Assembly (NCBI GenBank): GCA_963771355.1
Contig: CAVYTA010000005.1
Location: forward strand, 864,001 to 928,000
Length of the DNA stretch: 64,000 bases
Reading direction: 5' to 3'
Origin: an uncultured Candidatus Rokubacteria bacterium
Lineage (GTDB): Bacteria; Methylomirabilota; Methylomirabilia; Rokubacteriales; CSP1-6
Shown here: positions 2,481-21,400 of the stretch, piece by piece
Layout: every line of letters starts with the position of its first letter
Position numbering within the stretch: the first letter of the stretch is position 1
Made by a program: the position numbers and the translations under genes
Notes under the pieces: model-generated
Told to the model about the DNA's origin: nothing
Databases searched by the model: none
The model's input: the letters and a program-made list of their open reading frames with translations, nothing else

Positions 2481-2786
2481 TCAGCGGAGCATCCAGGGCA
2501 TCACCCAGAGCGCTAGCGAGGCCGGCGTAGCGATCCAGAGCATGACGCGCTGCTGGTGCCCCCCAGCGCCTCGACGGTATGCGAAGTAGTGCCCGAGGGC
2601 GAGCGAGGCGATCGACACGGGAATCAGGACGATCTGCAGCTCCGCCATCCTGGCGGCGAGAGCTCCGCTCGCCACGCCCAGCACTCCGAGCGAGGCGGTC
2701 AGGAGCGTCGCCGGTCAGAGAACCCAGAGGAACGCCGAGCCAGCCGACAGCCCGCTTGACCATCCCACCTTGTGATCATTCAACAT
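2481..2786 (-). CDS. MerT-like small membrane protein with in-frame TGA (putative selenocysteine) at codon 24
   Basis: ATG at 2786 with AAAGGA RBS; MLNDHKVGWSSGLSAGSAFLWVL-TGA(2715-2717)-PATLL... continues in frame into the 2481-2684 ORF; TM layout resembles MerT. Confidence 0.6.
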
Positions 2787-3450
2787 GTGCGATTCCTTTC
2801 TTGGTCCACGTGTCAGCGTCTGGGACTCGCCCACCGGGGGTGGGCTGGGCTATGCCGCGATAGAGGTACGAGCCCACCCGGGGTCCCGCAATGTAGCCCC
2901 GATTCACCTCCAAGGCTTCGAACCCACCCGATCGCAAGAGCCGGTCGATCGGTCGGTTCCAGTGGCAGCCACCCGCCACCCTCCGCCAGAGCGGCGTGAG
3001 CCGATCTTGCCACCGGACAACTGTCGGATCCGGCGAGCGTCCATGCTCGATGAAGATCAGCCGGCCCTGGGGCCGTAGCACACGACGCACCTCCTTGAGA
3101 GCCGCCACGGGATCCGGGATCGTGCAGAGCGTCCAGGTTGTAACGACGTCGTCCACCGACCCGGCCGCAAGCGGAATGGCCTCTGCCGGCCGGCAGAGGA
3201 ACTCCACCGGGAAGGCCGCGCCCTCCGCCCGCGAACGGGCCATCCGGAGCAGCTCCTCCGAGGGGTCCAGCGCGTAGAGCTTCAGCACCTCTCGGCTGTA
3301 GATCGGAAGGTTGAGTCCCGAGCCCACTCCGACCTCGAGGACCACACCTCTCGCCAGGGATACCCAGCGCGCCCGCTCGGGGCGGAGCGTACGGCTCCGC
3401 ATGGCGAGATCGGTGAGCGTCGGCAACACATGCTTGCGGTAGAGACCCAT
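2776..3450 (-). CDS. Class I SAM-dependent methyltransferase
   Basis: VLEVGVGSG motif I, DDVVTTWTLCTI, GGCHWNR. Confidence 0.9.
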   Translation of the reverse strand: MGLYRKHVLPTLTDLAMRSRTLRPERARWVSLARGVVLEVGVGSGLNLPIYSREVLKLYALDPSEELLRMARSRAEGAAFPVEFLCRPAEAIPLAAGSVDDVVTTWTLCTIPDPVAALKEVRRVLRPQGRLIFIEHGRSPDPTVVRWQDRLTPLWRRVAGGCHWNRPIDRLLRSGGFEALEVNRGYIAGPRVGSYLYRGIAQPTPGGRVPDADTWTKKGIAHVE

Positions 3451-3475
3451 CAGCCACCTCCTAGTAGCCAACCGC

Positions 3476-4181
3476 TCACCGGTGCATCTCCTGGCCCAAG
3501 GCTGCGACCAGCATCTGCACTACGGTGTCCTGCGCTACTCGCGGGTCGAACGGCTGCGGAGACGGATCCCAGTGGCGATGAACGGCCCAGAAGACCAGCG
3601 TCTCGATGATGAGCCGGGCGGCCACCATCGGGTCTGGGACCGGGCGCAACCGCCCCGCCCGGATGCCCCGCTCGAGGTATTGGGTCAGCAGGACCAGCAA
3701 CGCCTCGCGCCCCTGCGTGAACCAGAGCTTCGCGAGCGCCGGGTATTCAACCGCGCATCGGTCGACGAGCTTGATGCCGGTCCTGTTCCGCGCCATGGTT
3801 TCGTAGAGCTCACCCAGGATCCTGGTCAGCTCGGTCGCGTCCCCGGCGCCTCCGTGCCGCCTGAGTGCGACGAGGAGCGTCGGGCTCGCCGGCTGCTCGC
3901 GCGAGCCGCTGCTTGACCCACTGAAGAGTCCGGCCGCGGGCAGGCGTGCGGACCGGCAGACTTGGCGGCAGCGCGATCGGGCGCGGCGCGTCAGCGGAGC
4001 GGAGCACCGTGTCGAAGAGGGCGTCCTTGCTCTTCACGTAGAGGTAGACCGTACCCTTCGCCAGGCCCATCGCTTCGGCGATGTCACTCATCTGGGTGCG
4101 TCGGTACCCCTGGGCAATGAAGACACGCGTCGCAGCGTCGATGAGATCCTGAAAGCGCGAAGCGGGCACCCTGCGTGGCAC
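3476..4181 (-). CDS. TetR/AcrR regulator, frameshifted near 3800-3880
   Basis: HTH DIAEAMGLAKGTVYLY in ORF 3810-4181; C-terminal domain in ORF 3476-3796. Confidence 0.8.
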
Positions 4182-4188
4182 GGCTCCG

Positions 4189-4216
4189 ACTTTACATGAC
4201 CGACCCGGTCAGTCAA
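4189..4216 (-). promoter_or_regulatory. TetR promoter with overlapping palindromic operator
   Basis: Dyad TGACCGACC-C-GGTCAGTCA (4197-4215) overlapping TTGACT-16 nt-TAAAGT. Confidence 0.65.
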
Positions 4217-4261
4217 CTAGATTTTTCGAGGCCCCCGCTCGCCGGGGCTCTCTCGCCCTTC

Positions 4262-4693
4262 TCATCCGTCGCCCGCTCTGGCCGCCCGATCAGCGGCGAT
4301 GGTCTTCAACGAATCCTGTTCCAGCTTGAGCACGTGCTTGGCTACTACCCGGTAGGTCCACTGGTTGGGTGCGGTCTCACTGTTGAACTGCTCGTCGGTC
4401 AGCCCGATGAGTGAGCCGATCAGTCGCGCCCGCTCGGCGAGCCACTCGGCCAGGAGGCGTTGCATTGGCGACGCCGTGATCCGCGCCTCGTAGCGGCCCT
4501 CGAGGATCTGCGCGGTATGGATCTTTTCGTGATCGATATCGTTCGTGATGAGGGTCCAGACGTCCTTTCCTTGCGCGCAAGAGTGCGAGGATGGCGCCGC
4601 GAGCTCCCGATCGGACGCCTCGAGCAGGGCGTCCATGGTAGTCATCGTCTGCTCCATCAGCTCACGGATCGCACTGTGGACAGTCGCTGCCAT
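4262..4693 (-). CDS. DinB-like helical protein
   Basis: DHEKIH and WTYRVVAKHV motifs; GGAGG RBS. Confidence 0.6.
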   Translation of the reverse strand: MAATVHSAIRELMEQTMTTMDALLEASDRELAAPSSHSCAQGKDVWTLITNDIDHEKIHTAQILEGRYEARITASPMQRLLAEWLAERARLIGSLIGLTDEQFNSETAPNQWTYRVVAKHVLKLEQDSLKTIAADRAARAGDG

Positions 4694-4741
4694 AGTTGCC
4701 TCCTGTCGGAGAGTCACCGCTTCGCCAGGGTCCAGAGGCCG

Positions 4742-5680
4742 TCATCGCCTGGTCGGTGCCTTTGCGTACGATACCGCGGCTCGACCCGGACCGCCGGCCG
4801 CTTCAAGCAGGTCCACGAAGGCTCGTCCGCTCGCCCCCAGCGTTCGGGCCTCGTTGTGGATCACGTGAAAGTGACGTCGAATGCGATGCCCACGAAGCCG
4901 GAGCGCGGATAGCTGCCCGGTTCGGAGCTCGCCGACAATCGCGTGCGACGACACGAACGCGACGCCCAAGCCCGCCATCACCGCCTGCTTGATCGCCTCG
5001 GTGTGGCCCAGCTCCATCGTGGGTCCGATTCGGGCGCCGACGTGCTGCAGCGCTCGCTCGGTGACCTGACGACTGGCCGACCCCTCCTCCCGGATGAGCA
5101 GCCGTTCCGCGCCGAGCAGGTTGGGGGCGATCTCGCGGCGTCGGCTCCAACGATGCCCCGGCGGCACAATGAGCACCAGCTCATCACAAATTCCCTTGGC
5201 CAGGCATTCCTCGCCGGGGGGGAACCCGTGTCCCCCGACCACGCCGAGATCGAGCTCGTTGGCGCGGATCTGTGCCTCGATGTCGGCTGAATTGGCGATC
5301 CGCACGCGCAGGGTGATCCCGGGGTACTGCCTCTGGAAGCGAGCGGCGAGGTGAGGGAGAACGTAGATCCCGGGAGTGGTACTGGCGCCGATCAGCAGCG
5401 AGCCGCGCTTCAGCCCCTCGAGCTCGGCGACGGTCTCGCGCGCGCTGGCAAGGGTCGCGAGGACACGTTGTGCGTGCTCCTCGAAGATTCGCCCGGCCTC
5501 GGTGAGAGCGACTCGCCGATTGAGCCGGTCGAAGAGGCGGGCGCCCAGCTCTCGTTCGAGCTCCGCTACGTGCTGAGAGAGGGCCGGTTGACTGAGGTGC
5601 AGAACCTCCGCCGCGGCCCGGAAGCTTCCGGCGCGCGCCACCGCGAGAAATACCTCGACCTGCCGGAGGGTGATCTGCAT
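4742..5680 (-). CDS. LysR-family regulator, CysL-like
   Basis: LSQPALSQHV HTH; GASTTPGIYVLP, REEGSASR, EAIKQAVMAGLG. Confidence 0.92.
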   Translation of the reverse strand: MQITLRQVEVFLAVARAGSFRAAAEVLHLSQPALSQHVAELERELGARLFDRLNRRVALTEAGRIFEEHAQRVLATLASARETVAELEGLKRGSLLIGASTTPGIYVLPHLAARFQRQYPGITLRVRIANSADIEAQIRANELDLGVVGGHGFPPGEECLAKGICDELVLIVPPGHRWSRRREIAPNLLGAERLLIREEGSASRQVTERALQHVGARIGPTMELGHTEAIKQAVMAGLGVAFVSSHAIVGELRTGQLSALRLRGHRIRRHFHVIHNEARTLGASGRAFVDLLEAAGGPGRAAVSYAKAPTRR

Positions 5681-5751
5681 AAGCCAGGCCTTATCGAACG
5701 GATAACAACACGCGATTGGAGCTTAATCAAGCCTGCCCTTAGCTTCGAGGT

Positions 5752-6580
5752 GTGGATCTCGTTGCGCAGGAGCCCACGGTTCGGGTGGCAATCTTCGCCG
5801 CGGCCTTGAGCTTGGTCGCGGCCGGCGAGATCGTGGCCCCGCGGCGCCCCCTCACCGTCCCCCGCCGGTCTCGATGGCCCAGCAACCTCGCCATCGTTCT
5901 TCTCAACACCCTCTTGGTGCGGGCGTTGCTCCCCGTGACCGCGGTGAGCATGGCCATGCTGGCGGAGGAGCGAGGTTGGGGACTCTTTCACGCGTCCGGA
6001 CCCTTACCCGCCTGGCTCGTCGTTCCGGTTACCGTGGTCTTCCTGGATCTCGCCATTTACCTCCAGCACGTCCTCTTTCATGCCGTGCCTATTCTGTGGC
6101 GGTTGCATCGCATGCATCACGCCGACCTGGACGTGGACGTGACCACGGGCGCGCGGTTCCATCCCCTCGAGATCGTGCTTTCGATGCTCCTGAAGTTCGG
6201 GGTGATCGCCGCGCTCGGAGCTCCGCCGCTCGCCGTCCTCGTGTTCGAGCTCCTTCTCAGTACCGGCTCCCTGTTCAACCATGGAAATCTTCGTCTGCCG
6301 CTTCCGAGCCGACGGAATCCTCCGCTGGATCGTCGTGACCCCCGATATGCATCGCGTCCACCACTCCGTTGCCCCGGGGGAGACCAATCGCAATTTCGGG
6401 TTCACGTTCTCCTGGTGGGATTGGATCGGCGGAACCTACCGGGCGCAGCCAGCCGGCGGCCACGCCCGAATGTTGCTCGGGATCGCTCAGTTCCGGGACG
6501 TGAGCGACCTACGCCTTGATCGCCTCTTGCTCCAGCCTCTTCTCGACGGCCCGGGGTCGTCGATAGGTACGGGCCGCTAG
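5752..6580 (+). CDS. Sterol desaturase/fatty acid hydroxylase family, frameshift near 6300
   Basis: His boxes QHVLFH and LHRMHH, FNHGN, then VTPDMHRVHHS in the second frame. Confidence 0.85.
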
Positions 6581-6718
6581 TGTTGGCCTGGTCCCGTCCC
6601 GACCGGTCGGGCAATCCCCCGATCCAAGACCTCCCCGGTCGCCTTGGGCACGAAGCGAACGCGTTCCGCCTGTGCCGCCTTGTTCTTCATGGCGAGCTCG
6701 ATGAGTGTCGGCACATAC

Positions 6719-7856
6719 TTAGCGTAGACGCCCATCCCCCTCCTCTCGCCGGGATGCTTCGTAGCGTTGTCTAATGTCGGCCTCGGTCACTGGATACGCC
6801 GGTACAAGATCGCCATCGAGATTGCGGCGGATCACTCCGCTGTCGATTGCTCGCTCCTCCGCTCTGGCCTTGTCGTCGCTCGACCATCCGCGCGTCACCG
6901 GTAAACGCGAGAACTTCCCATAGTGAACGAGCGATTCCACCCAGGCCACCTCTTCGCTTCCCAGCCGTTCTCTCGCGCACTGGAGAAGCTCCTCGGAGGC
7001 CATCTCCAGGCGGCGCAATACAAAGCGGCCCGGTATCGCGAGGTCCGCATACTGCTCGAAAGCGTCTCGCATACCGTCGGAGGATCGTGCCGCGCGTCGT
7101 GATCCGCCCCACCCCGGTATCCCGCCCCGCCTTCCGTCACTTGCTCCTGGCGATGAAACACCGCCAGGAATGATCCGTCCACGACGTAGAACTTCTGGTG
7201 GATCCGATCCCGCTCGAGAACCATGACGTCTATCCCGTGTTCTTCGATATCGCGCCTGACGATCTTCAGCCCATGGGCGATGACCTCGTCGAGATCGACC
7301 ACTCGACGGTAGGTCACTCCGGCACCGAGCCGGTCGCTCAAGGTCGCCCAGAACGACGCCACCTGCGGTAGTCGAGGGGACTTGCTGACCGCCACGATGG
7401 TCCGGCGGGCCTGCCCCATGGCCTCACAAATCAACTGCGCAAACTCATCCGTCGTCGCGGCGTCCCACTCGTGGTGGGCGAGCGCCGCTGCGAACGGTCG
7501 ATGAGCCGGCTGGCGACCGCGATGATCTCATCGCATATGCCGTCGCAGAATGTCCCGCCGGCATCGCCTCGTTAGTGCGCCATAGCAGCTCCGAGCTCAG
7601 GGACCGCCAGGCGATGTTCGGACTGATCGCATAGTACTGACGGCGTCGCAATCTCCGATACACACTGCCGACAAGACCCCGTTCCTGTAGCTGCCGCAGC
7701 GCACTGCCGACCTCGGTCGAGCACTCCGCTGAGCATCGACACGATCGCTCTCTTCGGCACCGGACCGCACGTCAACACGACCCCATACACTTGGGTCGCG
7801 GTCCGATCGAACCCGAGCTCGCTCATGAGCTGAAACAGCCGCACTCTATCGTCCAA
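6719..7856 (-). pseudogene. TrmB-like regulator (HTH plus PLD-like domain), several frameshifts
   Basis: ELGFDRTATQVYGVVL start, YYAISPNIA and HQKFYVVD segments lie in successive frames. Confidence 0.55.
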
Positions 7857-7859
7857 CCC

Positions 7860-9061
7860 GTCCCCGCCTTTCGCCCCTGAGCATATTACGAAGTGCTTCG
7901 AGCGCGGCTCGCCGCCCGTGGCCCAGAGCGCGGCCGCGGCGAGCGTGCCGATCACGCCCGCCGCGCCCCCCGCCGCGAAGCCCACGACATACCCATGCTG
8001 CGTGATGATGGGCCCCAGCCCAAAGGAACCGAGCGCGAACCCCAGATAGAGGGACGTGCTATAGCCCCCCATGACGAGCCCCCTGGTCGCGGGCGTCGCG
8101 GCGGACGCCAGGGCTACGCCAACGGCGACAAACGCGATCCCGCTGACCGCACCGAAGACGGCCACCAGCAGGAGCAAGGGCGTCTGGCCACCGACGTGAG
8201 GCAGAAGAATCGTCGCGACAGATGCGACCAGGACGCCAACGATTGCGCAGGGAGCGGGCCGCCCGGTGCGATCCACGAGCCAGCCCGCCGGCAACCGGGC
8301 CACCGTGTTGGCGAGCCGAGGACGAGGAATACGAAGCCGATGGCTGCGGGCGTGAGTCCTCGATCATGGCCGAGCAGCGGAAAGAAGCTGAAGACGACAC
8401 CCTGAATGAGAAGGCCGCTGATGGACAGGATCCACCCGGCCCAGACGGCGGCATTGCCTCTGATGTCGGTAAACGTTGCGCCGGATCGAGAGGTCGGAAG
8501 GGCGGGGGGCCGAATGGGGAGGACGAGGCCAACGATCAGAGCGAAGGCGACGCCGACGGCGCTCGTAACGAATGCGGCACGGTAGCCCCACCATTCGGCA
8601 GCGAGGCCGCCCAGGTACGGCCCGACTCCAATCGCTGCCATAGTGCGCCGTCGAGTACCACGCGAAGGCGTGTCCAGCCCGGCCCGGAGCCGCCGCGTCG
8701 CCCACCAACGAGAGGGCGCTCGGTGTGAACGCCGCCACTCCGAGACCCGCGAGGCCATAGATTGCCATCAGGGCGAGCGGATCTCGACCAGAGGGAGGAG
8801 CAGGGAGGTCCCGATGCTGACGATCATTCCTCCTAGCAGGAACCGGCGCCGGCCCCAAACGTCCGAGGCACGACCGAACGGGATGGAGCCGACCGCCGCC
8901 ACCATCATGTGCGCACCGAGGATCAGCCCGACCCCCGTGGCGGAGGCCCCGTGGGTGACGGCATAGAGGGGCAGGATCGGACCACGCATCTGCGCCGCGG
9001 CGTAGTGGAGGAACGTAAGCAGGCAAACGACGGCGAGAACGCTAAGAGGATTCGACGCCAA
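7860..9061 (-). pseudogene. MFS transporter, several frameshifts
   Basis: GRASDVWGRRRF and GWLVDRTG motif-A copies across four frames. Confidence 0.8.
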
Positions 9062-9210
9062 GGCAAAGTCCCCCTGTCAACAGCTTTGAGGGACCTTACA
9101 GTCGCGGGCCTGGAGGCCCACGAACCCGTGGATCGAGGAGCGACCCACATCATTCCCTAACGTCGCCCTCGACAATAGTCTTCCATCGGACGTTCGTCAA
9201 GCTAAGCGGT

Positions 9211-9480
9211 CTATCGTTCTTCCGCTGCGTACGCCCCATACGCGAACGTCCGACGGTACGTGCGACCACAAGATCGAACCGTATCACCCGGCTACCGGGA
9301 GGCCACGTCATCGCAGGCGGGGCAGTCGCCCGGTGAGCGAGCGTCGCGGACCAGCGACCGGCGTCTTCTACACGCGCAGAGCGTGTCCCGCGCAGTGTGG
9401 GCACTCCACCAGGTCCCCCGACCGGGTTCCGTCGGGCAACGCGATCAGCGCGCCACAGTCGGGGCAGCCACTACCGGCAT
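9211..9480 (-). pseudogene. Double zinc-ribbon (LysW-like) Cys-rich protein, frameshifted
   Basis: Pieces CPDCGALIALPDGTRSGDLVECPHC and CPACDD...GDTVRSCGRTYRRTFAYGAYAAEER; ATG overlaps the upstream TGA (TGATG). Confidence 0.6.
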
Positions 9481-9695
9481 CACCGAATCCCAAGAGCCGC
9501 TGCAGCCGTCGCGGTCAAGCCGACGACAACTCGTCGTCTACGGTGATGACGGGGACTGCATCGCCCGGTTCGCGTGATGAGCTCATCGCGCGTGCGGATC
9601 TCGGAACGTTTTGGCGTGAAGGCGAGGCATGAGAAAGAAACTCTTTCGCGCTGAAAGCTGTAGGTGAGAATGACGGTGATCTGCCGAGTCGCCAC
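9480..9695 (-). pseudogene. Glutaredoxin/NrdH-like redoxin, heavily degraded
   Basis: Pieces in shifting frames: RQITV, AKEFLS, RDELITRTG, VPVITVDD. Confidence 0.5.
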
Positions 9696-9696
9696 G

Positions 9697-10362
9697 CTAG
9701 TATCTCGTGAGCAAGCCCCCGAAGATCCAGTGGCCGATCTTGAACGCTTCCGTGACGGTGGCTCCAGAGCCTTGAGCGGCCGGGTTCGCGTCTCGCCAGG
9801 CCCTCAGATGTTCTTCCGACCGGAAGAAGTTGATCGTCGTTCAGAGCGAGTCGAAGGCCTTGCACGGCTCGTCACCGCGCGCTCCGAACCACACCATCAG
9901 CCCTTCGGCGGTCCCCACCACTCCGTCCGGCGTTGTGGCGATCTTCAGCGGTTCACCGCAGTGATGGCAGGACGACGTGATCTCGACGGGTTCTCCGACC
10001 ATCGGCGCGATGCCGAGTGCGTCGGTCGCGCAGCAGGCGTAGCGCTCGCGGGCGCCTGACAGACGCAGGCGAAACGGCGTTGCCGCGGCCGAGAACGGGT
10101 AGGCGACGTCGATCCGACCAGTGCGGATCCGGATCAGGTCGTCAGCATCGAGCGCGACGAGGGCATCGTGGACCGCCTCGGCCCGACGGTCAGGCGAGCC
10201 GGCGACGATGTCCTCGACGGGAATCGGCCCGCCTCGCTGCAGAAAGGTCCGGAGGATGAGCCGGACGAGAGGCTGCTGCCGAGCCGCCCGGCGAGCGGCC
10301 TGCCGCTCAAGCGGATCGAGGGCCTTCAATTCGTCAGCCGTCAGGATCACCAGGTTTGCCAC
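9697..10362 (-). CDS. merB: Organomercurial lyase MerB-like, in-frame TGA (putative Sec) at the second catalytic Cys
   Basis: AYPFS and ACCATDALG (Cys96/Asp99 equivalent); after TGA (9841-9843) the frame continues [20 protein letters not shown]...[17 protein letters not shown] to TAG at 9697. Confidence 0.85.
9811..9828 (-). promoter_or_regulatory. Candidate bacterial SECIS element of merB
   Basis: UUCUUCC-GGUC-GGAAGAA perfect 7-bp stem; loop starts 19 nt after the UGA. Confidence 0.7.
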
Positions 10363-10389
10363 GATCGGCCTCCCCTCTCACTCGAACCG

Positions 10390-10420
10390 AGCGTAGAGTC
10401 TGTAGTAGCTCCAGACTCAA
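10390..10420 (-). promoter_or_regulatory. MerR-family operator/promoter driving the merB operon
   Basis: TTGAGT-19 nt-TACGCT with dyad GAGTCTGTAG..CTCCAGACTC. Confidence 0.85.
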
Positions 10421-10446
10421 GGATTATTTCAGAAGGGGGCAAGGGC

Positions 10447-10879
10447 ATGGCGGACACGGGGCGGATCGCCATCGGCGCGCTGTCGAAGCGGACCGGTACC
10501 AATATCGAGACCATCCGCTACTACGAGCGCGTCAGGTTGCTGCCCGCTCCGGCTCGGAGCTCGGGAGGCTACCGCCTGTATGGGACTGGGCACCTGAAGC
10601 GGCTGAGCTTCATCCGCCGGGCGCGCGCGCTCGGGTTCTCGCTCGCCGAGGTGCGAACCCTGCTGGCTCTTGCAGATCAGCGACGGCGCCCGTGCGCCGA
10701 GGTGCGGGTGGTGGCGGCGGCTCACCTTGATGACGTGAAAGGAAGATCGCGACTTGAAGGCGATGGAACATGCGCTGGCAGAGACCATCGCGCGCTGTGA
10801 GGCGGGTAGCGGCTCGCACTGTCCGGTGATCGACGCGCTATGTACCACCCGAGGCTACCCAGCCCAGAAGCGCGGATAG
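10447..10879 (+). CDS. MerR-family regulator with three-Cys metal site, copy 1, frameshift near 10750
   Basis: IETIRYYER, RRPCAEV, then ARCEAGSGSHCPVIDAL in the second frame. Confidence 0.85.
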
Positions 10880-10889
10880 AGCTCCCGGA

Positions 10890-11150
10890 GTTGCCAAGAC
10901 CAACCGGACGTCTGGGCGGCGGCGCTCGGTCAGATAGCGCTCCCGCACCGTCGGATCGCTCAGCGGCGTGCCGCTGGCGCAGCACATGATGGAGCGCGCG
11001 TCGTCGGTATGCGGCAGGCCCACGGCGTGGCCCAGCTCGTGGCCGCCCACCTCGACCAGGAGCGGCTCCGACTCCGGGTGGACGCCCCCAAGAGGCAGCA
11101 TCAGGTCGATGCGCACCGGGCGCTTGATCGCCCCGAGATCGTCGTGTTCG
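10890..11150 (-). pseudogene. Matrixin/metzincin peptidase fragment
   Basis: HELGHAVGLPH...SIM (HExxHxxGxxH plus Met-turn). Confidence 0.65.
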
Positions 11151-11169
11151 AGGTAGGTCCGGTTGGGCA

Positions 11170-12270
11170 CCTGAGGAAACCTCTCAGGGACGAGATTCTC
11201 CTCTCGGGCACCCGTGCCCAGATTGCCATCAAGCTCTTCGGTGCCGATCTCGGCATCTTGAGAACGAAGGCGGGCGAGATCCGCGACGCGATGGCCAGGG
11301 TCGCCGGAATCGTGGACCTGCTCGTCGAGCCTCAGGTCGGAGTGCCCCAGGTCCAGATCAATCTGGACCGGCGCGCCGCGGCGGCGGTCGGGCTTCGCGC
11401 GGAAGATCTCACGGAGACGGTGGAGACCGCCTTCAGCGGCCACGTCGTCTCCCAGGTGCTGCAGGAACAGCGAAGCTACGACATCCTCGTGCGCCTGGAC
11501 GACACCGCCCGGGAATCGGTCGGACGATCCGCCGAACCCTCATCGACACCCCCAGCGGTGCTCGCGTCCCCATCGGCCAGCCCGCCGGAGGTCCGGGTCG
11601 ATGCGGGACCGAACACCATCAACCGGGATAACGTGCAGCGGCGCATCATCGTGCAGGCCAACGTCACGGGCCGGGACCTCGGCAGCGTGATCGCCGAGGT
11701 CCGGCAGGCGATCGCCGCGCGGGTCGCGCTGCCGCAGGGATACTTCGTCCAGTACGGCGGGCAGTTCGAGTCGCAGGAGCGGGCGGTTCGGCAGATCGCG
11801 CTGCTTTCTGCCGCGGCCATCGGAGGGATCTTCCTCCTCCTCTACCTGGCGCTCCGTTCCAGCCGTTTGGCCACGCTCGTGATGGCCAACTTGCCGCTCG
11901 CGCTGATCGGCGGGGTCGTCATGGTGTTCGTGGCGGGCGGCACGCTGTCGATCGCCTCCCTCATCGGATTCATCGCGCTCTTCGGCATCGCGACCCGGAA
12001 CGGCATCATGCTCATCACCCACTACCGCCACCTCATGGAGGAGGAGGGCGTGGGCTTTCGGGACGCCATCGTTCAGGGATCGATGGAGCGGCTGAGCCCC
12101 ATCCTCATGACGGCGCTCGTCACCGGTATCGGCCTCGTTCCGTTGGCGCTCGGCGCCGGTCAACCGGGGAAGAGATCCAGCAGCCCATGGCTATCGTGAT
12201 CCTGGGCGGGATTGCCACCTCGACGGCGCTCAACATGATCGTCATTCCTGCGCTCTACCGTGAAGTTCGG
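11170..12270 (+). pseudogene. C-terminal fragment of a CzcA/CusA-type RND transporter
   Basis: YGGQFESQ, NLPLALIGG, FGIATRNG, ERLSPILMTAL; no N-terminal part. Confidence 0.8.
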
Positions 12271-12363
12271 ACGCGCGGAGGCGCGGCGGACGCGCGAGGA
12301 GCCGGCCGTAGGTACGGCCGCTCTCAGCGGCTAGCTGCCGGCTCATCCGGGCAGCACATCACC

Positions 12364-12555
12364 ATGCTGCTGCGGAGCATAGTCGCGCTTGGCGTCGTGG
12401 CTACCATCGCGGTGCTGATCGCGTGGGTGCTTGTTCGGCTGATGTGGTCGCCGCCCTCGTCTACCGCCGCTCGGGCAGCGCTGGTCTGCACTATTCTCAT
12501 CCTGACCGCTATTGGCCTGTGGGTCTTCTTCGTGCTGCCCGCATACTGGGACTGA
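12364..12555 (+). CDS. Small two-TM membrane protein
   Basis: Hydrophobic 63-aa ORF ending VLPAYWD. Confidence 0.45.
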   Translation: MLLRSIVALGVVATIAVLIAWVLVRLMWSPPSSTAARAALVCTILILTAIGLWVFFVLPAYWD

Positions 12556-12691
12556 TCTCGGAGGGCGGATTGAGCCGGTCACACGGAGCGACATATCCAC
12601 GCTGTGCGCCGCCGGGAGCGAGGAGCCCGCGCGCGGGGCGACCGCGGTCGCCGGCGATTGATCTGCTGGACCCTCCGCGAGGAGATTCCTG

Positions 12692-12860
12692 ATGGATAGC
12701 GTCTCCTTTGAGATGGTACTCATCGCGCTCGGCACCCTGGCCAATGGGTTCTTCTTCGAGTCCGAGTTCGCCCTGGTATCTCGCGCATCAGCCGGCTGGC
12801 CCAGCTGCGCGAGCAGGCCGTGCGGGGCGCGGCTGCCGCGATGCGCCTCAAGGAGAAGCC
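12692..12860 (+). pseudogene. N-terminal remnant of a CNNM/hemolysin-family (DUF21) protein
   Basis: LANGFFFESEFALVSR motif; truncated. Confidence 0.6.
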
Positions 12861-12861
12861 C

Positions 12862-12968
12862 CTGCTCGTTCGTAGAGGCGAAGCGCCTTGCGGCTGGCGC
12901 CGTTCTTCGCCGCCATCTCACCGATCAGCAGCCCGTTTCTCGCCATGACTGGAGGTAAGTCCTGCCCC
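12862..12968 (-). pseudogene. Remnant copy of the 539-982 MerR gene start plus half its operator
   Basis: MARNGLLIGEMAAKNGASRKALRLYERAG, near-identical to the 982 gene start. Confidence 0.75.
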
Positions 12969-13069
12969 GCGGGACTCCGAGCGCTCCGTCTCGAAGCAGG
13001 AAGTAGCAGAAACACAGCACATGCTGCCCGGAGGCGGCAAACGACCTCTTGAAAGGAGCGCACTTCCTC

Positions 13070-13399
13070 ATGGCTTCGGTGATCAACTCGATCGTGCTCT
13101 TCCTGGTGGCGGGCCTCTGCGAGATTGGGGGCGGCTACCTCGTGTGGCAGTGGTGGCGTAACGGGAAGTCGGCGTTCATCGGTGCTCTAGGAGCCGCGGT
13201 GCTCGTCCTCTACGGCATCGTGCCGACATACCAGCCGCAGCACTTCGGGCGTGTCTACGCGGCCTACGGCGGCGTTTTCGTCGTCCTCTCGGTCATCTGG
13301 GGTTGGGGCGTGGATGGCATCGCGCCAGACCGCTTCGACATCCTCGGCGGGCTCATCTGCTTGATCGGCGTCGCGGTGATCATGTACTGGCCCCGGTAG
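13070..13399 (+). CDS. ynfA: YnfA (UPF0060) family small membrane protein
   Basis: [30 protein letters not shown]. Confidence 0.9.
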
Positions 13400-13440
13400 G
13401 CCGCCCGGGAGGCTGCGATCAGCGCGGGCATGCCTACCTC

Positions 13441-13764
13441 CTAGCGCGTCGGCGGCGGCGCTCCCGAAGGCGGAGAACCCTTCGTCGACGCGCGGAACCC
13501 GAGGCGATCTATAGCCTCGATCATCTGCGGGACCGCCACCTGTGCGGGGTCGAAGGTCACGACCGCCTCCTTCGCCCTCAGGCTCACATCTGCCCGACTC
13601 AGACCCCTCAGCCCTTCCAGGGCCTTCTTCACTCCAACGGGGCAGGCGCCTCAGGTCATTCCGTCCACCGTGAGGACCACCGTGGACGTCGCGGCCTACA
13701 ACGCGGTGGATGCAACGACCAGCAGGCCCAGTAGCACGGCGACGACCGACACCCATCGATTCAC
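13441..13764 (-). CDS. merP: MerP-like periplasmic HMA protein with GMT-U-GAC (TGA, putative Sec); also a TAG in the signal peptide
   Basis: GTG at 13764 with AGGAGG RBS; MNRWVSVVAVLLGLLVVASTAL-TAG(13696)-AATSTVVLTVDGMT-TGA(13651)-GACPVGVKKAL...EAVVTFD aligns to MerP VWAATQTVTLAVPGMTCAACPITVKKAL. Confidence 0.8.
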
Positions 13765-14163
13765 TGCGTTCCTCCTATGGTGTGGCCGGTGTGAGACTGA
13801 TCAGCGGTCATCACGTACGCCAGCAGATCGGAGGTGAACTCGGGGAAATGATCGAGCACGATGGTCGTAGCGACGACCAGGCTCGCCAGGATCAGCAGCC
13901 CGAGCGTGATGCGACTGCCTGCCGTCCGGCAGGCTGGCCAGCGCGTCACAGCGCCGCCGCTCCCGCCGGTACAGGACGAAGCCGGCGACGATGCCGATGA
14001 TCCCGGCCGGGACCAGCAGCCAACGGTACTGCATCGTCGTCGCCATGAACGCGCCACTCCCAAGCCCAAGCACGATCACTGCGAGAGGGAGAAGACAGCA
14101 GAGCGAGGCGAGCGCCGCCCCCATCCACGCGACCAAGCCAGCAGCGAGCGCTGCACGTTTCAT
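13761..14163 (-). CDS. merT: MerT-like mercuric transport protein, frameshift near 13935
   Basis: ASLCCLLPLAVIVLG, QYRWLL, cytoplasmic C-x(4)-C; stop overlaps the merP start (GTGA). Confidence 0.8.
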
Positions 14164-14172
14164 AGTGTCCGC

Positions 14173-14328
14173 CTACCCTTCTGCTGGGGCGTACGCCCCA
14201 TACTCGAACGTCAGACGGTACGTGCGACCGCAGCATCGAACCGTATCTCCCGGCTTCACGTCGTCGGGGAGGGTCAGTACGTCATCGCACTCGGGGCAAC
14301 TCACCCGACAAGCGAGCGTCGCTCTCAC
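14173..14328 (-). CDS. Single zinc-ribbon protein, the distal half of the 9211-9480 gene
   Basis: CPECDDVLTLPDDVKPGDTVRCCGRTYRLTFEYGAYA. Confidence 0.6.
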   Translation of the reverse strand: MRATLACRVSCPECDDVLTLPDDVKPGDTVRCCGRTYRLTFEYGAYAPAEG

Positions 14329-14336
14329 CTGAGCTG

Positions 14337-14367
14337 AGGGTAGAGTCTGTAGTAACTCCAGACTCAA
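14337..14367 (-). promoter_or_regulatory. Second copy of the MerR-family operator/promoter
   Basis: TTGAGT-19 nt-TACCCT with dyad GAGTCTGTAGTAACTCCAGACTC. Confidence 0.85.
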
Positions 14368-14392
14368 GGACTATTCGGGGGGGGGCAAGGGC

Positions 14393-14798
14393 ATGGCGGA
14401 CACGGGGCGGATCGCCATCGGCGCGCTGTCGAAGCACACGGGGACGAACATCGAGACCATCCGCTACTACGAGCGCGTCGGGTTGCTGCCCGCTCCGGCT
14501 CGGAGCTCGGGAGGCTACCGCCTGTATGGGACGGGGCACCTGAAGCGGCTGAGCTTCATCCGCCGGGCCCGCGCTCGGGTTCTCGCTCGCCGAGGTGCGA
14601 ACGCTGCTGACTCTGGCAGATCGAGCGACGGCGCCCGTGCGCCGAGGTGCGGGTGGTGGTGGCGGCGCACCTTGATGACGTGAAAGGGAAGATCGCCGAC
14701 TTGAAGGCGATGGGGCATGCGCTGGCAGAGACCATCGCGCGCTGCGAGGCGGGGAGCGGCTCCCGCACTGTCCGGTGATCGACGCGCTCGATGCTTAG
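14393..14798 (+). CDS. MerR-family regulator, copy 2, frameshifted
   Basis: Near-identical to the 10447 copy at DNA level. Confidence 0.85.
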
Positions 14799-14813
14799 GG
14801 GCCAGCTCGTCAC

Positions 14814-15426
14814 CTAGGGGATCGTTAGCGGACGCAGGGCGCGCCTCGCTTCGCCGATAATCCTGATGGCCGAGGTAGCGAACATTGCGGCGGATCAGGA
14901 GACCCACCGCGATGTCCGGCCACGCGGAGCCCGTGAGGGCGACCCCGCCCGCCGCCATCAGCACTCCGGCATTGGCCATCACATCATTCCGGGAGCAGAG
15001 CCACGCGGAGCGCATGTTGATGTCGTCACCCCGACGCCGCCAGAGCAGGAACAGACAGATCACGTTGGCGGCCAACGCGAGGAGGCCGATGCCCCCCATG
15101 AGCCCGGCGGCCGGGACGATACCTCGGGCGATTTTCAGGATTGCTTCCAGGAGGACGCCGAGGCCGAAGATTGCCATCACGGTCCCTTTGAGCAGCGCCG
15201 CGCGCGCCTGCCAGACGCTACCCCGGCTCACGACATAGAGGCTGAAGCCGTACACGAGCGCGTCCCCGAGCATGTCCACCGAGTCCGCCAGGAGGGCCGT
15301 CGAGCCGGCGAGAAGCCCCGCACCAAACTCCACCAGGAACATAGCGGCATTGATACACAGGACGATCTGGAGCACCCGGCGCTGCCGGGCGGGAACATCA
15401 ACCATCACCTCACAGCAGTCTTTCAC
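14814..15426 (-). CDS. Cation diffusion facilitator-type transporter, frameshift near the C-terminus
   Basis: GSTALLADSVDMLGDA, DINMRSAWLCSRND, WPD; N-terminal DCC. Confidence 0.85.
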
Positions 15427-16740
15427 GGCACATTCATTATGCATGAGGGGCCCGGCTCGGAGCCACGCTTGCGGCGATGCGACCCGACGGCGGGACCGTC
15501 CCGCCTTCGATCGGAGAGCATGGAGTGCTGTGCGGGCACGTCTTCGTGTTTCAACTGGATGGCGTGTTTCCTAGTGCTCTCCGCCCGGAGGAGGAAGCTG
15601 CCCTCGGTGACCACCCTCTCCCCGGGGTGCAGCCCGGACACGACCGCATAGAACTCGCCCACCGGGACCCAGGCGTACCGTGCGCTGGATGAACTCCCCT
15701 CCTCGTCCTGGCGGCCACGAAGACCACCTGGCGCCCGCCGAGCGTCTGGACGGCCGCCTTCGGCACCAGCCGCCGTCGCCCGCCGCGGTCCGAAGACCAC
15801 GGTCACGAACATCCCCAGCCGAAGCCGCCCTCCGGGTTCGGCACCTCGACCCGGACCTTGGCCGTCCGCGCCTGGGGGTCGACCCGCGGGTCGATATAGG
15901 TCACGCGGCCCCGGAGCGCGTGCCGGGGTAGGCCGGCGTCTGATGGCGGCCTCGGAGCCGACGCCGACGCCGCGAAGTCCTGCTCGTAGAGATCGCCGAC
16001 CACCCAGACCTCGAGAGGTCGGTCACGACGAAGAGCTCCTGCCCATGCCGACCACCTGGCCGGGATTCGCGGACCGGCCGGTAATGACGCCGCCGATCGG
16101 CGCCGGTACCGTCACTTGGAGATGACCTGAGTGGACCTCGGAGGCCTCGACCTGTTCTGCCGTAGCCCGAGCAGCAGCAGCCGCTGGCGCGCGGCCGCGA
16201 CCTCGGTCGCGTGGCTGGCATGGACCGCCGTCACCTCCTCGAGCTCCTGACGGCTCGCCGCGCCGATCGCCGCGAGCGCCTGCGTGCGTTCGCGCTTCTG
16301 GTGGTCGGCCTCCAGCATGGCCCCCATGGAGAGATACTTCGTCTGGGCGTCGGCGAGCTCCGTGCTGAAGACGTGGCGAGCGGCTGCCGCGCCCCACCGC
16401 CGCGCCCAGCTCGACATGCACCTTGCGGACGATGCCGGCCGCGACGGGCGTGACTTTGGTCTCCCGGTAGGCGTTCGCCACCACACTGCCGGGCACGATG
16501 ACCTCCATTACGTGGAGCCGGCCGTCACCGGCGCGGTCTTGATCCCGGCTCGCGTTACCGCCTCGGGGTTCAGCACGACTCGACGTCCGCGGCGGCCGCC
16601 GGCGATGGCCGGCCGTCACGGGAGCCGCCGCCGGGGGGCGGCGGCCGATCGACACCCGAGCGGCGCGCCACCACAGTGCCGGCAGCCCCGAGCGCCGTGA
16701 AGCCGAGCGCGCCGCCAACCCAGAGAAGCGCGGCGACCGA
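15423..16740 (-). pseudogene. RND periplasmic adaptor (CusB/CzcB-like), many frameshifts
   Basis: VPAPIGGVI, YIDPRVDPQARTAKVRVEVPN, VVSGLHPGERVVTEGSFLL. Confidence 0.8.
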
Positions 16741-16745
16741 TCGGC

Positions 16746-18039
16746 TCACGATGCTTCTCCGATGGCTCGCTCGATCTCCACCGCGGCGTCATAGACCTGC
16801 TTGAGCACCTCCGTATACCCGTCTCGACCTCGATGAGCGGCGCTGCTCGGCGATGACGTCGAGCAGCGGACCGCGGCCGAGCCGTAGGCTCTGGCGGACG
16901 ACGTCGAGATTCTGCCGCGCCACGTCCCGCACGCCGCGCTCGTAGAGTCTCGAGCGAGCGCCGGGCCGCCTCGTACTGGGTGAAGGCCGCGGCGACCTCC
17001 TGGCGCACCATGAGCTCGAGCGAATTCCCGCCGCCGCTCCGGCCGCTCGCGCCTCGGCCTGCGCCGCCGCGATGTTGCCCTCGTTGCGGTTGCGCACGGG
17101 CAGGGTGATCGTGACCCCGCCGCCGACAATAATGGAAAGACGTCCTGGATCGGGCGCGTCGCCCCGCGGTCGTCAGGCCGCTCAGGTCGAAGCCGAAGTC
17201 CTGGCGCTGGTAGCCGACGTTGACGCTGGCGTCCCAGCGCCCCTCGGCCTCTTCCTTCCGGATCCGCGCCCGCGCCATCGCCGACCTCGGCCCGGGCCGC
17301 GCGGAGGTCGGGCCGGTCGGCGAGCGCCTGCGCTCGAGGCCCTCGTCGCGGTCGATCCGCACCGCCGGCGGCGTCCAGCTCGCCCCGCCGACTCGAGCGG
17401 CTCTCCGGCGGCAAGCCCGGCGAGCGCCTGAGCTGGAGCGTGCAGCACCTCGACCCGGCTCCAGGACTGCTGGGCTGGCCTCCAGGCGATTGACCTCGAC
17501 GAGCAGCAGGTTCTCGTCGAGCGGGGGCGCCGCCCCGCGGCGCACGCGCTCCCCGACGAGGCCGAGCGCCTGCCGGTTCGCCTGCGAGCAGCTCTCGCGT
17601 GACGGCAGGTTGCGCCGCGCGGCCAGCAGCTCCCCGGCCTTGAGCCGGATCTCGGCCCGCAGCCGCCGCTCCCGCTCGGCGAGCTGCGCCTGCTTGACCC
17701 CAGCTCGCGCTCGGCCACCCGACGCGGCCCTCCTTCCGGCCGTTCAGGTCGAGCGGCAGCGTCACGCCCACCGATGAGGTTGTTGTCCGGGCCCGGTGAC
17801 GCTTTCTGGCCCGCGAGGTCGAGCATCGGGTTCGGGCGAAGCCCCGCCTGCTGGACGCGCGCCGCGCGCCGCCTCCACCTCGGCGCGCGCCGCCTGCAGC
17901 TCGGGGTGTTCCGCGAGCGCCCGCGCGACGAGCTCGTCGACCGTGACTCGCGCCGCGGTCGGCGGCGCTCTGGGCCGACGCCACGACGGCGATCGCCACC
18001 AGGAGCAGCAGGACGGGCTCCCGCCGAGCGTCGCATCAC
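16746..18039 (-). pseudogene. TolC/CzcC-family outer membrane factor, many frameshifts
   Basis: QAGLRPNP, GVTLPLDL, RNRNEGNIAAA, LLDVIAEQR. Confidence 0.8.
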
Positions 18040-18047
18040 GGCACCTC

Positions 18048-18455
18048 CTAGCGCACCGGCACGGAGAACCGCGTCGAGCCCTTCCCCGCCGGCCCGTCCC
18101 AGGTCACCGTCACCTGCCGCGCGCCGCTGTCGGGGAAGCTGATCGTCCCCTGGTAGCGGCCCGGGCGCTTGTCCGGCGCAGCGTGGCCCCGGCGATCATC
18201 GGCGCCATGCCCGGCATCGCCATGCTGGTGCTGAGGCACCTTGCCGGCATCGACCGGCTTCCCGTCTTGGCCGAGGTGAACTCCAGCGACGAAGTGTTCT
18301 TCCCTGCGTCCACTGCCCGGACTCGCTCGCAGCGTCACGCACGTCCTTGGTCTTCTGCGTCTGGATGGCCTTGAGCTCGGCCCCCGGCCGGGCCGAGCGA
18401 GCCCGCCAGCGATCAGCAGACCGATCACGACACTCAGCACGATTGCACGTGTCAT
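18048..18455 (-). pseudogene. FixH/YtkA-like Met-rich periplasmic protein, frameshifted
   Basis: Signal peptide, SMAMPGMAPM, PGRYQGTISF. Confidence 0.6.
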
Positions 18456-18467
18456 TCGTCCTCCTTG

Positions 18468-21400
18468 TCATGGATGATCCTTCCTGTTCGATGCCGGCTG
18501 CTCGGGGCTCGGCTCCGTCCTGCGCCTCGCCTCGTCCCGCCGGAGCTCCCGCTCCCGAAGCCAGTAGAAGATCACCGGCGTCACGAGCAGCACGTGGCCA
18601 GCGAGCTGACCATGCCGCCCAGCACCGGCGTGGCCAGCGGCTTCATGACTTCGGCGCCCGTCGAGTGGCTCCACATGATCGGCAGCAGGCTCGCGACGAC
18701 GGTGGAGACCGTCATCACCTTGGGCCGCAGCCGCAGCAGCGCGCCCTCGGTCACCGCCTCCAGGAGCGCCGCCCGCGTCAGCCGCCCGCCCAGCGCCTCG
18801 CGCTTTGCGCGCCACGGCCTCTTCGAGATAGATCACCATCACCACCGCGGTCTGCACGGCGGTGCCGAAGAGCGCGATGAAGCCCACCCAGACGGCGACC
18901 GAGAAGTTGTAGCCCAGCGCATACAGCAGATAGATCCCGCCGGAGAGCGCAAAGGGCACCGCCAGGAGCACATGGGCGGCCTCGAGGAGCGAGTGGTAGG
19001 TGAGGTAGAGCAGGAGTAGATGACGCGAGCACCACCGGGATGACGATCTGGAGCCGCTGCGCGGGCGCGCACCTCGTTCTCGTACTGGCCGCTCCACTCG
19101 ATGTAGGAGCCCTGGCGGCAGCGTGACCGTCTCGGCGACGACCTGCCGGGCCTCCTCGACGAAGCTGCCGACGTCGCGCCCGCGGACGTTCAGGAGCACG
19201 GTGACGACGAGCAGCCCGTTCTCGCTGGCGATCATGGCCGGGCCGCGCGACCGGCCGGATGTCCGCCAGCTGCGCCAGCGGCACCTGCGTGCCGTTCGGC
19301 GCGGCGACGAGCACGCTCGCCAGCGCCTCGGGATGGCGCGGTACTGCGGCGCATAGCGCACGCGCACGGGGAAGCGCTGGCGCCCTTCGATGGTCAGGGT
19401 GAGGTTCGTCTCGCCGACGGCCGTCTCGATCACGTCCTGGATGGCGCCGACCGTGATGCCATAGCGCGCCGCCGCCTCGCGGTTCACGCGGATGTCGAGG
19501 TAGGGCGCGCCGGTCACCTGCTCCGGGTAGACATCCGCGGCGCCCGGGATGCTCCGCAGCACCTCGGCGACCGCCCGCGCCCGCTCCTCGAGGACCTTCA
19601 GATCGCTGCCAAAGATCTTCACGCCGACCTCGGAGCGGATGCCGGTGGTCAGCATGTTGATGCGGTTGATGATCGGCTGGGTCCAGATGTTCGCCACGCC
19701 GGGCAGGGTCGCGGCCGCATCCAGCTCGGCGATGAGCTTTTCGCGCGTCATCCCGGGCCGCCACTGCGGACTCGGGCTTGAGGTGCACGATCCGTCTCGG
19801 TCATGTTCACGGGCGCGGGGTCGGTCGAGGTCTCGGCGCGGCGCGATCTTGGCCACGACCACGGCGACTTCGGGAACCGCTGCGATGGCGGCGTTCTGCT
19901 TCTTCGTGATCTCGATGGCCTGCGGCAGCGAGATCGCCGGGTCGGTGACCGGCATGAACATCAGGTCGCCCTCGTTCAGCGGCGGCATGAACTCCCGGCC
20001 GATGCGCGGGCACGAGCGAGACGCGCGCCCGCGAAGACCAGGACGCGCCGCGCCGAGGGTCAGCGACGCGGTGCCGCAGCGCCCAGCCGAGCAGCGGGCC
20101 GATAGAGCCAGACGAGCGGCCGCATCACGGGATTGTCGTCCTCCCGCGGATCCGCCCGCCGAGGAGGAGCGTGCAGAGCACCGGCACCAGCGTCACGGCG
20201 AGCAGCGTCGCCCCATCATCGCGAAGGTCTTGGTGAAGGCGAGCGGATGGAAGAGCTTGCCCTCCTGGCCGGTGAGCGCAAAGACCGGGACGAAGGCGAG
20301 AATGATGATCGCCATCGAGAAGAAGATCGGCCGGCCGACCAGGCGCGTCGCGTCGAGCACGGTCGCGGCCAGACGCGCCGGCGGTCGCGGGGGTCGACCC
20401 CGCGCTGCTCGATGAAGCGGAAGGCGTTCTCGGTCACCACGATGGCCGCATCGACCAGGACGCCAATGGCGATGGCGATCCCGGCCAGCGACATGATGTT
20501 CGAGCTGATCCCGAGATAGCGCATGAAGAGAAACGCCGCCAGGACGGCCAGGGGCAGCGGGAGCGTGACGATCAGGACCGAGCGCAGATGCAGCAGAAAG
20601 ACGATGTGCACCAGCGTGACGATGAGGATCTCCTCGATGAGCGCGCGCTTGAGGGTGTCGACCGCCCGCTCGATGAGCGTCCGAGCGGTCATAGAAGGGC
20701 ACGATCCTCACGCCCGGCGGCAGCCCGGCCTGCGAGCGGCCTCGATCTTCTCCTTGACGCGCGTCGATGACGTCGACCGTGCTCACCCCGTAGCGCGCGA
20801 CCACGACGCCGCCCACCGCTTCTTCCGTGCCCTTCGACGAGCGCAGCCGCCCGGAAGGCGTCGCCGATCTTCACCGTCGGCGACCTGGCGGAGGAAGATC
20901 GGCGCGCCGTTCTCGGCGCCGATCACGATCTGCTCGATGTCGCTGACGCGCTCGATGAGCCCCAGGCCGCGCACGACGGACCAGGTGCCGCTGGCCTCGA
21001 CGACGTTGCCGCCGACGTTGCGGTTGCTCCGCATCACCGCCTCGACGACCGCGGAGAGCGGGATGCGGAAGGCGCGCAGCCGGTTGGGGTCGACATCGAT
21101 CTGGTACTGCCGGACCGCGCCCCCGACGCTGGCCACCTCGGCCACGCCCGGCACGGCGTTGAGCTGATAGCGGATAAACCAGTCCTGGAGCGACGCGCAG
21201 ATCGCGCAGGGCGTAGCCCTGGCCCCTCCACCGTGTACCAGAAGACCTGCCCGACCCCCGTGGCGTCCGGGCCCGAGGGTCGGCACGACGCCCGGCGGCA
21301 GCGACTTGCGAGCAGGTTCAGCCGCTCCAGGACGCGCGTGCGCGCGAAGTAGAGGTCGACGGCGTCCTCGAAGATGACGTTAATCATCGAGAAGCCAAAG

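Follow-up and report, generated by a model that had tools for sequence, protein, structure and literature searches.

Does an in-frame TGA end the protein, or is it read as selenocysteine (Sec)? This question is raised by a MerB-like gene in a stretch of 64,000 nt from an uncultured Candidatus Rokubacteria bacterium (contig CAVYTA010000005.1 of assembly GCA_963771355.1, positions 864,001 to 928,000; hereafter the window). The minus-strand open reading frame (ORF) 9841..10362 closes with ...AFDSL and then the TGA at 9841-9843, beyond which the frame runs for 47 more codons (TTINFF...GGLLTRY) to a TAG, for a total of 221 residues; translation confirmed both the stop and the continuation given in the preliminary description of the locus. 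According to the analysis reported here, this TGA most likely encodes Sec (at a probability of roughly 85%), its decoding being aided by a hairpin that follows it, and the product would be an enzyme of 221 residues for which cleavage of metal-carbon bonds is predicted. The gene and its elements are as follows:

9700..10362, minus strand: MerB-like selenoprotein gene of 221 codons, with a GTG start at 10362 and a TAG stop at 9697-9699 (from translation)
9841..9843, minus strand: in-frame TGA, codon 174, the predicted Sec codon, in the column of MerB Cys159
9811..9828, minus strand: hairpin UUCUUCC-GGUC-GGAAGAA resembling a selenocysteine insertion sequence (SECIS), read in the sequence and encoding F-F-R-S-E-E
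10030..10041, minus strand: codons for C111-A-T-D114, the equivalents of MerB Cys96 and Asp99 (from alignment to PDB structures)
10369..10373, minus strand: ribosome-binding site GGAGG, 6 nt ahead of the GTG start, read in the sequence and kept upstream in relatives

The TGA was found to be the sole interruption of the MerB-family gene. The read-through protein matched Pfam PF03243 at 102.8 bits (1.7e-29; cut-off 27) over profile positions 1-126 of 126, and the ORF ending at the TGA covered positions 1-77 only. When the 221-residue protein was aligned by hidden Markov model (HMM) and to PDB structures, the check that had been named for this assignment, the TGA fell on Cys159 of MerB ('sfC-S-hvhFF', 3f2g) and, in MerB2 (5c17), on the corresponding Cys, in agreement with the preliminary description. 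In the PDB alignment C111, D114 and C132 corresponded to Cys96, Asp99 and Cys117 of MerB, and the Cys96/Asp99 pair (CATD) is intact, as had been stated; C111 was invariant across the 45-sequence homologue alignment. An AlphaFold2 model built with 45 homologues had a mean predicted local distance difference test (pLDDT) score of 93.2 and a predicted template modelling (pTM) score of 0.90, and its matches in the PDB at E ≤ 0.001 were 11 chains, all of MerB or MerB2, with template modelling (TM) scores of 0.55-0.78. The position of the start codon was common to close relatives, where it is ATG, GTG or TTG.

A homologue was found in 48 of 61 genomes (that of the window plus those of 60 relatives), and nearly every match carried exactly one in-frame TGA. 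Phylum-wide, 114 of 251 genomes gave a match at E ≤ 1e-10, and in-frame TGA codons were present in 115 of 136 such matches, as counted by hand in the rows listed for the 251 genomes. These homologue counts, and the SelB counts given below, take in four unpublished genomes (G016, G030, G094 and G135). The aligned codon column of 83 distinct loci held 66 TGA and 17 TGT or TGC codons. The relatives' genomes gave 54 TGA and 2 TGT/TGC codons in 56 loci, a second set gave 8 and 0 in 8 (one of which repeats a contig counted before), and a third set picked from the phylum-wide rows gave 5 and 15 in 20; since this last set was picked to take in rows free of the stop, the proportions of TGA to Cys are no random sample. 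The TGA was kept in homologues with identities down to about 20-30%, and the positions of Cys96, Asp99 and Cys159 were kept throughout the main clade. Leu preceded U in 44 of 54 Sec rows, and the window likewise has L-U. At least three switches between Sec and Cys, two of them forced by well-supported branches, are needed on a quick tree with 65 Sec and 17 Cys rows (82 in all).

The codons beyond the TGA evolve as coding sequence. In comparisons with nine close relatives, codons 187-218 of the tail had a median ratio of nonsynonymous to synonymous substitution rates (dN/dS) of 0.17 at a dS of 1.05, and the part upstream of the TGA had a dN/dS of 0.30. Judged by these rates, the 47-codon tail is under purifying selection and translated. 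Separately, two loci of a distant MerB-like subfamily of the Q-C-G-F-E type (L063 in G017:C148 and L065 in G049:C172) were seen to have a second TGA at the Cys96 column, and their TGAs are each followed by a hairpin of their own, GCUGGC-GGUCC-GCUGGC in one and GCCGGC-AGUUA-GCUGGC in the other.

The hairpin after the TGA consists of UUCUUCC (9828-9822), the loop GGUC (9821-9818) and GGAAGAA (9817-9811), with perfect pairing. The gap from the UGA to the stem is 12 nt and that to the loop 19 nt, as the preliminary description had it. Like the hairpin of Escherichia coli fdhF, it lies inside the coding region, and GGTC was found 18 nt beyond the TGA of fdhF; in fdhF, GGUC belongs to the SECIS loop, as the preliminary description says, and more exactly to the apical loop. 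The short perfect 7-bp stem with its tetraloop differs from fdhF, in which a bulged U is a feature of the SECIS; no such bulge was seen here.

For a comparison across relatives, each locus was scored by its best simple hairpin beginning 6-21 nt past the codon. Among Sec forms (n = 64; two further ones could not be scored, as their contigs end too soon) the median was -7.25 kcal/mol and the worst value -4.6, with the hairpins located 10-18 nt past the TGA. Among Cys forms (n = 17) the median was -1.3 and the best value -4.4 kcal/mol, so the ranges of the two forms, whose members are relatives and not independent, are disjoint. Four subfamilies retain the hairpin by different stems or loops, namely UUCUUCC-GGUC-GGAAGAA, CUCUUCC-GGUC-GGAAGAG, UGCUC-GGUC-GAGCA (with the stem moved by four bases) and UUCUUC-UGUACG-GAAGAA, and 93% of the stem cells were paired in 52 sequences. 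The codons within the stem were nearly uniform: Arg at +7 was CGG in 48 of 48 cases (38% elsewhere in the same genes), Ser at +8 was TCG in 52 of 52 (40% elsewhere) and Glu at +9 was GAA in 40 of 46 (12% elsewhere, 83 of 710). From these codon counts, the synonymous sites of the stem codons are, to all appearance, frozen. Many metagenome and metatranscriptome contigs were also seen to match the window at 9808-9844 (the TGA and hairpin) only and then diverge, so that this stretch of ~36 nt is common at the nucleotide level to diverged soil homologues.

The machinery for Sec insertion is encoded in the window's genome. The genes selA (555 bits), selB (367 bits) and selD (266 bits), as well as the tRNA-Sec gene selC (69 bits), all scored over their curated cut-offs; the four genes of the E. 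coli fdhF-type system are therefore all present. The genome was also found to hold three FdhA homologues with a single in-frame TGA apiece, and G-rich loops lie at a similar distance from the UGA of its own FdhA genes. Of the 46 genomes with a TGA-bearing match, 38 had SelB over cut-off; one of the two genomes with Cys forms only (G014, 98% complete) gave no SelB match. A Methylomirabilota genome, for which Deng and colleagues (2026, Cell Rep) are cited, reportedly has 63 selenoprotein genes. The proposal that the gene encodes a MerB with Sec at the Cys159 position is thus supported by the alignments, the TGA/Cys column, the tie of the hairpin to the TGA, selection on the tail and the sel genes. 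We predict with high confidence from these sequence data that the UGA encodes Sec. Minus-strand 9700-10362 is a real, intact and unannotated selenoprotein gene.

The neighbourhood of the gene contains a divergent regulator and two genes downstream:

10447..10879, plus strand: divergent gene for a MerR-family metal sensor, in two frames in this assembly (Pfam MerR helix-turn-helix and MerR-DNA-bind)
10390..10420, minus strand: putative MerR-type promoter/operator, read in the sequence as TTGAGT, a 19-nt spacer with the dyad GAGTCTG...CAGACTC, and TACGCT
9480..9696, minus strand: glutaredoxin-like gene, directly downstream, with many 1-nt deletions in this assembly (from comparison with relatives)
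9150..9493, minus strand: tandem zinc-ribbon (LysW-like) gene, the third of the operon, frame-broken in this assembly (from tblastn)

For intact orthologues of the regulator the best model was TIGR02051 (MerR, the Hg sensor; cut-off 150.85), with 133-134 bits, and the CueR and CadR models gave nearly the same scores. Activators of the MerR family typically work on promoters with a long spacer, and 10390..10420 may be read as a promoter by analogy with the 19-bp-spacer promoters known for this family. The arrangement TTGAGT-19 nt-TACGCT was kept in seven loci with a divergent merR.

In the closest relatives, the glutaredoxin-like gene starts a few bases past the merB stop and encodes 80 residues, with an in-frame TGA in T-U-Q-S-C (UxxC). 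Its product matched PF00462 at 1.4e-16 and TIGR02196 at 79 bits against 88.55; intact copies are L078:3369-3608 and L081:6668-6904. This Sec-glutaredoxin gene of the relatives has its own hairpin, and the window's copy has lost the TGA and the frame through many single-base deletions. An intact form of the zinc-ribbon gene (L081:6909-7190) encodes 94 residues and matched PF21344 at 7.3e-10. In several relatives (L022, L046, L020 and L054) TGA stands for the second Cys of CPxC motifs in this gene, with up to three TGAs in one copy, which suggests that the residues encoded by these codons may be Sec metal ligands. Among the 27 distinct loci that have 1.5 kb or more of flank, about 11 contained the trio of merB-like, glutaredoxin and zinc-ribbon genes. 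The named relatives are soil metagenome-assembled genomes of Candidatus Rokubacteria/Methylomirabilota, and one is labelled Acidobacteria. In this one (L079; QHVJ01000423.1, 'Acidobacteria bacterium') the order merR/merB-like/glutaredoxin/zinc-ribbon is the same, the merB-like protein is 78% identical and the glutaredoxin gene has an internal deletion; the label is probably a binning or labelling matter.

No merA, merT or merP was found in the window's flanks or in the loci of five relatives, and merT and merP were not present past the zinc-ribbon gene in L077, where a MetE-like gene follows according to a reading of the ORF list. A MerA-like oxidoreductase of the pyridine-nucleotide disulfide family was observed elsewhere in the genome (G000:C6:100973-102304, minus strand), at 339 bits on the MerA model and under its cut-off. 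It has an in-frame TGA in G-G-T-C-V-N-W-G-U, corresponding to the second Cys of a CxxxxC redox pair, and a GGUA-loop hairpin about 17 nt past the TGA. The flanks of the operon (2779-8767 and 10880-20192) resemble a metal and efflux island, in which the following were recognised:

3479-4208: TetR gene, in two frames
5743-6577: fatty-acid hydroxylase gene, in two frames
7575-9076: major facilitator superfamily (MFS) transporter gene, in three frames
10880-12552 and 18471-20192: AcrB-type fragments
13007-13396: YnfA-family gene
14333-14680: second MerR gene
14518-15570: cation-efflux gene

In this assembly the merR, glutaredoxin-like, zinc-ribbon, MFS and TetR genes and other neighbours are split between frames. 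Short-read contigs from three studies, with high identity over the gene, cover the TGA and hairpin, and no difference is listed there. The same contigs carry bases that the window is without: in merR, a base each following 10740 and 10749, found in every one of the three studies, and bases at many places in 9368-9592. The bases missing from the window were seen to be single G or C residues, located exactly at the frame breaks. A 412-nt short-read contig over 9329-9698 differed by 2 substitutions and 29 gap positions. Compared with relatives, the window was short of 17 bases over 9600-9699 and of 10-14 over 9500-9599, at a mismatch of only 7-14%, whereas 9700-10362 had few scattered gap positions (at most about three per 100 nt) and an unbroken frame. 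The gap positions within the gene may be read as in-frame variation among homologues. Because many single-base losses are combined with few substitutions, the frame breaks of the neighbours are probably assembly errors and not decay. The genome also has two FdhA genes (G000:C7:2068-5047 and G000:C6:1158243-1161351) that are each in two pieces in different frames, consistent with single-base assembly errors elsewhere in the genome. The preliminary description had contrasted a gene free of indels with neighbours full of them. The contrast holds in this assembly, but, given that the short-read contigs carry the bases missing from the neighbours, it is most likely an assembly artefact and no sign of selective preservation. 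The gene, its whole tail (9689-9841) included, is also matched by contigs from the metatranscriptome libraries of two studies, and in those three RNA runs the merB-like gene was the only covered part of 7000-13000. Such contigs are a weak hint of transcription and no more, because this stretch was itself used to select the runs, and carry-over of DNA is possible.

The protein was compared with the known members of its family. With MerB (plasmid R831b) and Bacillus MerB2 (3F0P, 3F2G, 1S6L and 5C17) it shares the predicted fold (TM 0.65-0.78 to the crystal structures) and the positions of Cys96, Asp99, Cys117 and Cys159. It differs from both in having Sec for Cys159 and no Cys160, at an identity of 22-25%, and from canonical MerB in scoring under the NCBIfam cut-offs and in having no link to merA, merT or merP in the loci examined. 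A MerB-like 'selenocysteine-assisted organometallic lyase' (SaoL, NCBIfam NF040728) is described in a preprint by Haft & Gwadz (bioRxiv 10.1101/2022.07.06.499078), according to which its Sec aligns with MerB Cys159 and it is reported from anaerobes only. The window protein resembles SaoL in belonging to PF03243, in having Sec on Cys159 with the equivalents of Cys96 and Asp99 kept, in being cut about 50 residues short in databases and in the hairpin directly after the UGA. However, it scored 53.6 bits against a cut-off of 140 on NF040728, over residues 34-144 only, and it has L-U where SaoL has a C-U dipeptide. No SAO-like nine-gene locus (ABC transporter, SaoE and others) was found by Pfam scans of the window at 2.8-20 kb and of four relatives' loci, with the Sao NCBIfam models not run on the neighbours; the context here is instead a divergent merR with a Sec-glutaredoxin/zinc-ribbon operon. 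The hosts are soil Rokubacteria/Methylomirabilota, unlike the anaerobes from which that preprint reports SaoL. In the available portions of the literature on MerB-family selenoproteins (PMC9312934, PMC13188914, PMC2398784, PMC5029168, PMC12013277 and 10.1101/2022.07.06.499078), SaoL was the only one found, and two reviews name it alone under the heading MerB-like; Haft & Tolstoy 2025 (PMC12013261) and Deng et al. 2026 could list the clade. With SaoL in print, the principle of a MerB-family Sec at the Cys159 position is not new. By sequence, the gene belongs to a large Rokubacteria/Methylomirabilota clade, distinct from SaoL, of a kind of MerB-like selenoprotein that is already known.

MerB binds mercury through two thiolates, and its Asp99 supplies the proton to the leaving carbon. 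A selenolate should bind soft metals faster and tighter than a thiolate, so that capture could speed up and release suffer. In the mechanism that we propose, SelB would bind the GGUC-loop hairpin and bring Sec-tRNA to the UGA, and Sec174 would form a MerB-type site with Cys111 and Asp114. The selenolate and thiolate would hold the metal of an organomercurial or other organometal while Asp114 protonates the carbon. The divergent MerR-type metal sensor would activate the gene via the 19-nt-spacer promoter, and the metal product would be passed to the co-transcribed Sec-glutaredoxin (UxxC), the zinc-ribbon protein or both. Its role as an organomercurial lyase is proposed with moderate confidence. 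The substrate could be another organometal, as the protein falls short of the curated MerB models and its regulator scores almost alike on the MerR, CueR and CadR models.

Several observations weigh against a Sec-containing, MerB-type lyase. No SelB match at E ≤ 1e-60 was found in 8 of the 46 genomes with the TGA form, all of them metagenome-assembled and one 99% complete. The 54-nt stretch with the hairpin was no more stable than shuffled sequence (z = +1.16), its minimum-energy fold chooses another structure, and an Rfam scan of 9650-9950 at E ≤ 10 gave two chance-level matches only and no SECIS family. Covariation was thin, with one pair changed on both sides and a score of 0.133 (shuffles, 0.111), as there is hardly any variation in the stem. 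The earlier rating of the hairpin as a strong SECIS candidate is accordingly upheld by its conservation and its tie to the TGA and not by its folding energy, which does not by itself show that the hairpin is beyond chance. On the side of function, the NCBIfam MerB models NF009710 and NF033555 were far below cut-off (76.9 against 193 and 56.4 against 200), and no MerA over cut-off was found in the genome (best match 377 bits against 454). The neighbourhood was not conserved beyond the closest subclade (the neighbours in L080, L083 and L084 are unrelated), so that mercury is no more than a candidate substrate. By chemical reasoning, moreover, an Hg-Se bond should resist release, a point against simple turnover.

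These points were weighed with the rival explanations. If the TGA were a nonsense mutation or a sequencing error, the gene would be a pseudogene in a decaying island, and the broken frames of its neighbours in this assembly would fit such a history. Those breaks are absent from the independent short-read contigs, which do carry the TGA. Of 83 loci, 66 share this codon, with identities as low as about 20-30%; purifying selection acts on the tail, and the frame of the 663-nt gene is unbroken next to 27-31 bases missing in the adjoining 200 nt. This explanation, contradicted by the conservation of the TGA, the selection on the tail and the short-read contigs, is rejected as having next to no probability. 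Nearly as improbable is a TGA that terminates, leaving a working 173-residue product and a downstream frame that is kept for another reason or read with a standard amino acid. The databases would seem to speak for it. Among 5.8 billion database proteins there were 684 homologues at E ≤ 1e-10, the best 120 of which were all called at about 173 residues (the named ones as 'hypothetical' or 'alkylmercury lyase(-like)'), and the 47-residue tail was found in no database protein of 121-387 residues. Such lengths, however, reflect the gene callers and are no evidence on the protein. The 173-residue product would be without the last third of the MerB domain, Cys-form homologues read straight through, and the tail has its dN/dS of 0.17 in the same frame and completes the MerB fold at high model confidence. 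A functional truncation is rejected on account of the selected tail and the predicted fold that it completes.

An explanation that accepts Sec but not the reaction is possible, though we consider it on the unlikely side: the protein would be no organomercurial lyase; its substrate would be another organometal(loid), or it would be a high-affinity trap or chaperone for Hg(II) or soft metals that works together with the Sec-glutaredoxin. It agrees with the scores under the curated MerB cut-offs, with a genome that has no MerA over cut-off and annotated loci in which no merA, merT or merP was seen, and with a MerR-like sensor that is under the MerR cut-off and scores nearly as well on CueR and CadR; the same doubt is argued for SaoL by Haft & Gwadz (10.1101/2022.07.06.499078). 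Yet the Cys96, Asp99 and Cys159 positions are kept, including a proton donor that would be superfluous for a mere binder, the fold matches MerB structures only, and the top-scoring family of the regulator remains MerR. Decoding of the TGA as Sec, in an enzyme predicted to cleave metal-carbon bonds, is therefore the reading that we retain.

In gene annotation and mercury-gene surveys these genes are cut at the TGA, so a large merB-like clade of a common soil phylum is miscounted or discarded. A more far-reaching proposal, which we regard as speculative and improbable, is a MerA-free handling of organomercury by selenium: under a MerR-type sensor, a three-gene operon would supply a Sec-MerB that cleaves the Hg-C bond, and Hg(II) would move by selenol/thiol exchange to the Sec-glutaredoxin and the Cys/Sec zinc-ribbon protein, to be sequestered and not reduced to Hg(0). 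If this were true, soil Rokubacteria would be an overlooked methylmercury sink, one that merB surveys miss because the genes are called truncated. Given the precedent of SaoL, the advance is moderate. The placement of Sec at a ligand position in a metal-carbon lyase nevertheless bears on the interplay of selenium and mercury in the cell, and the natural Sec/Cys pairs of this family are material with which to ask what Sec adds to this chemistry.

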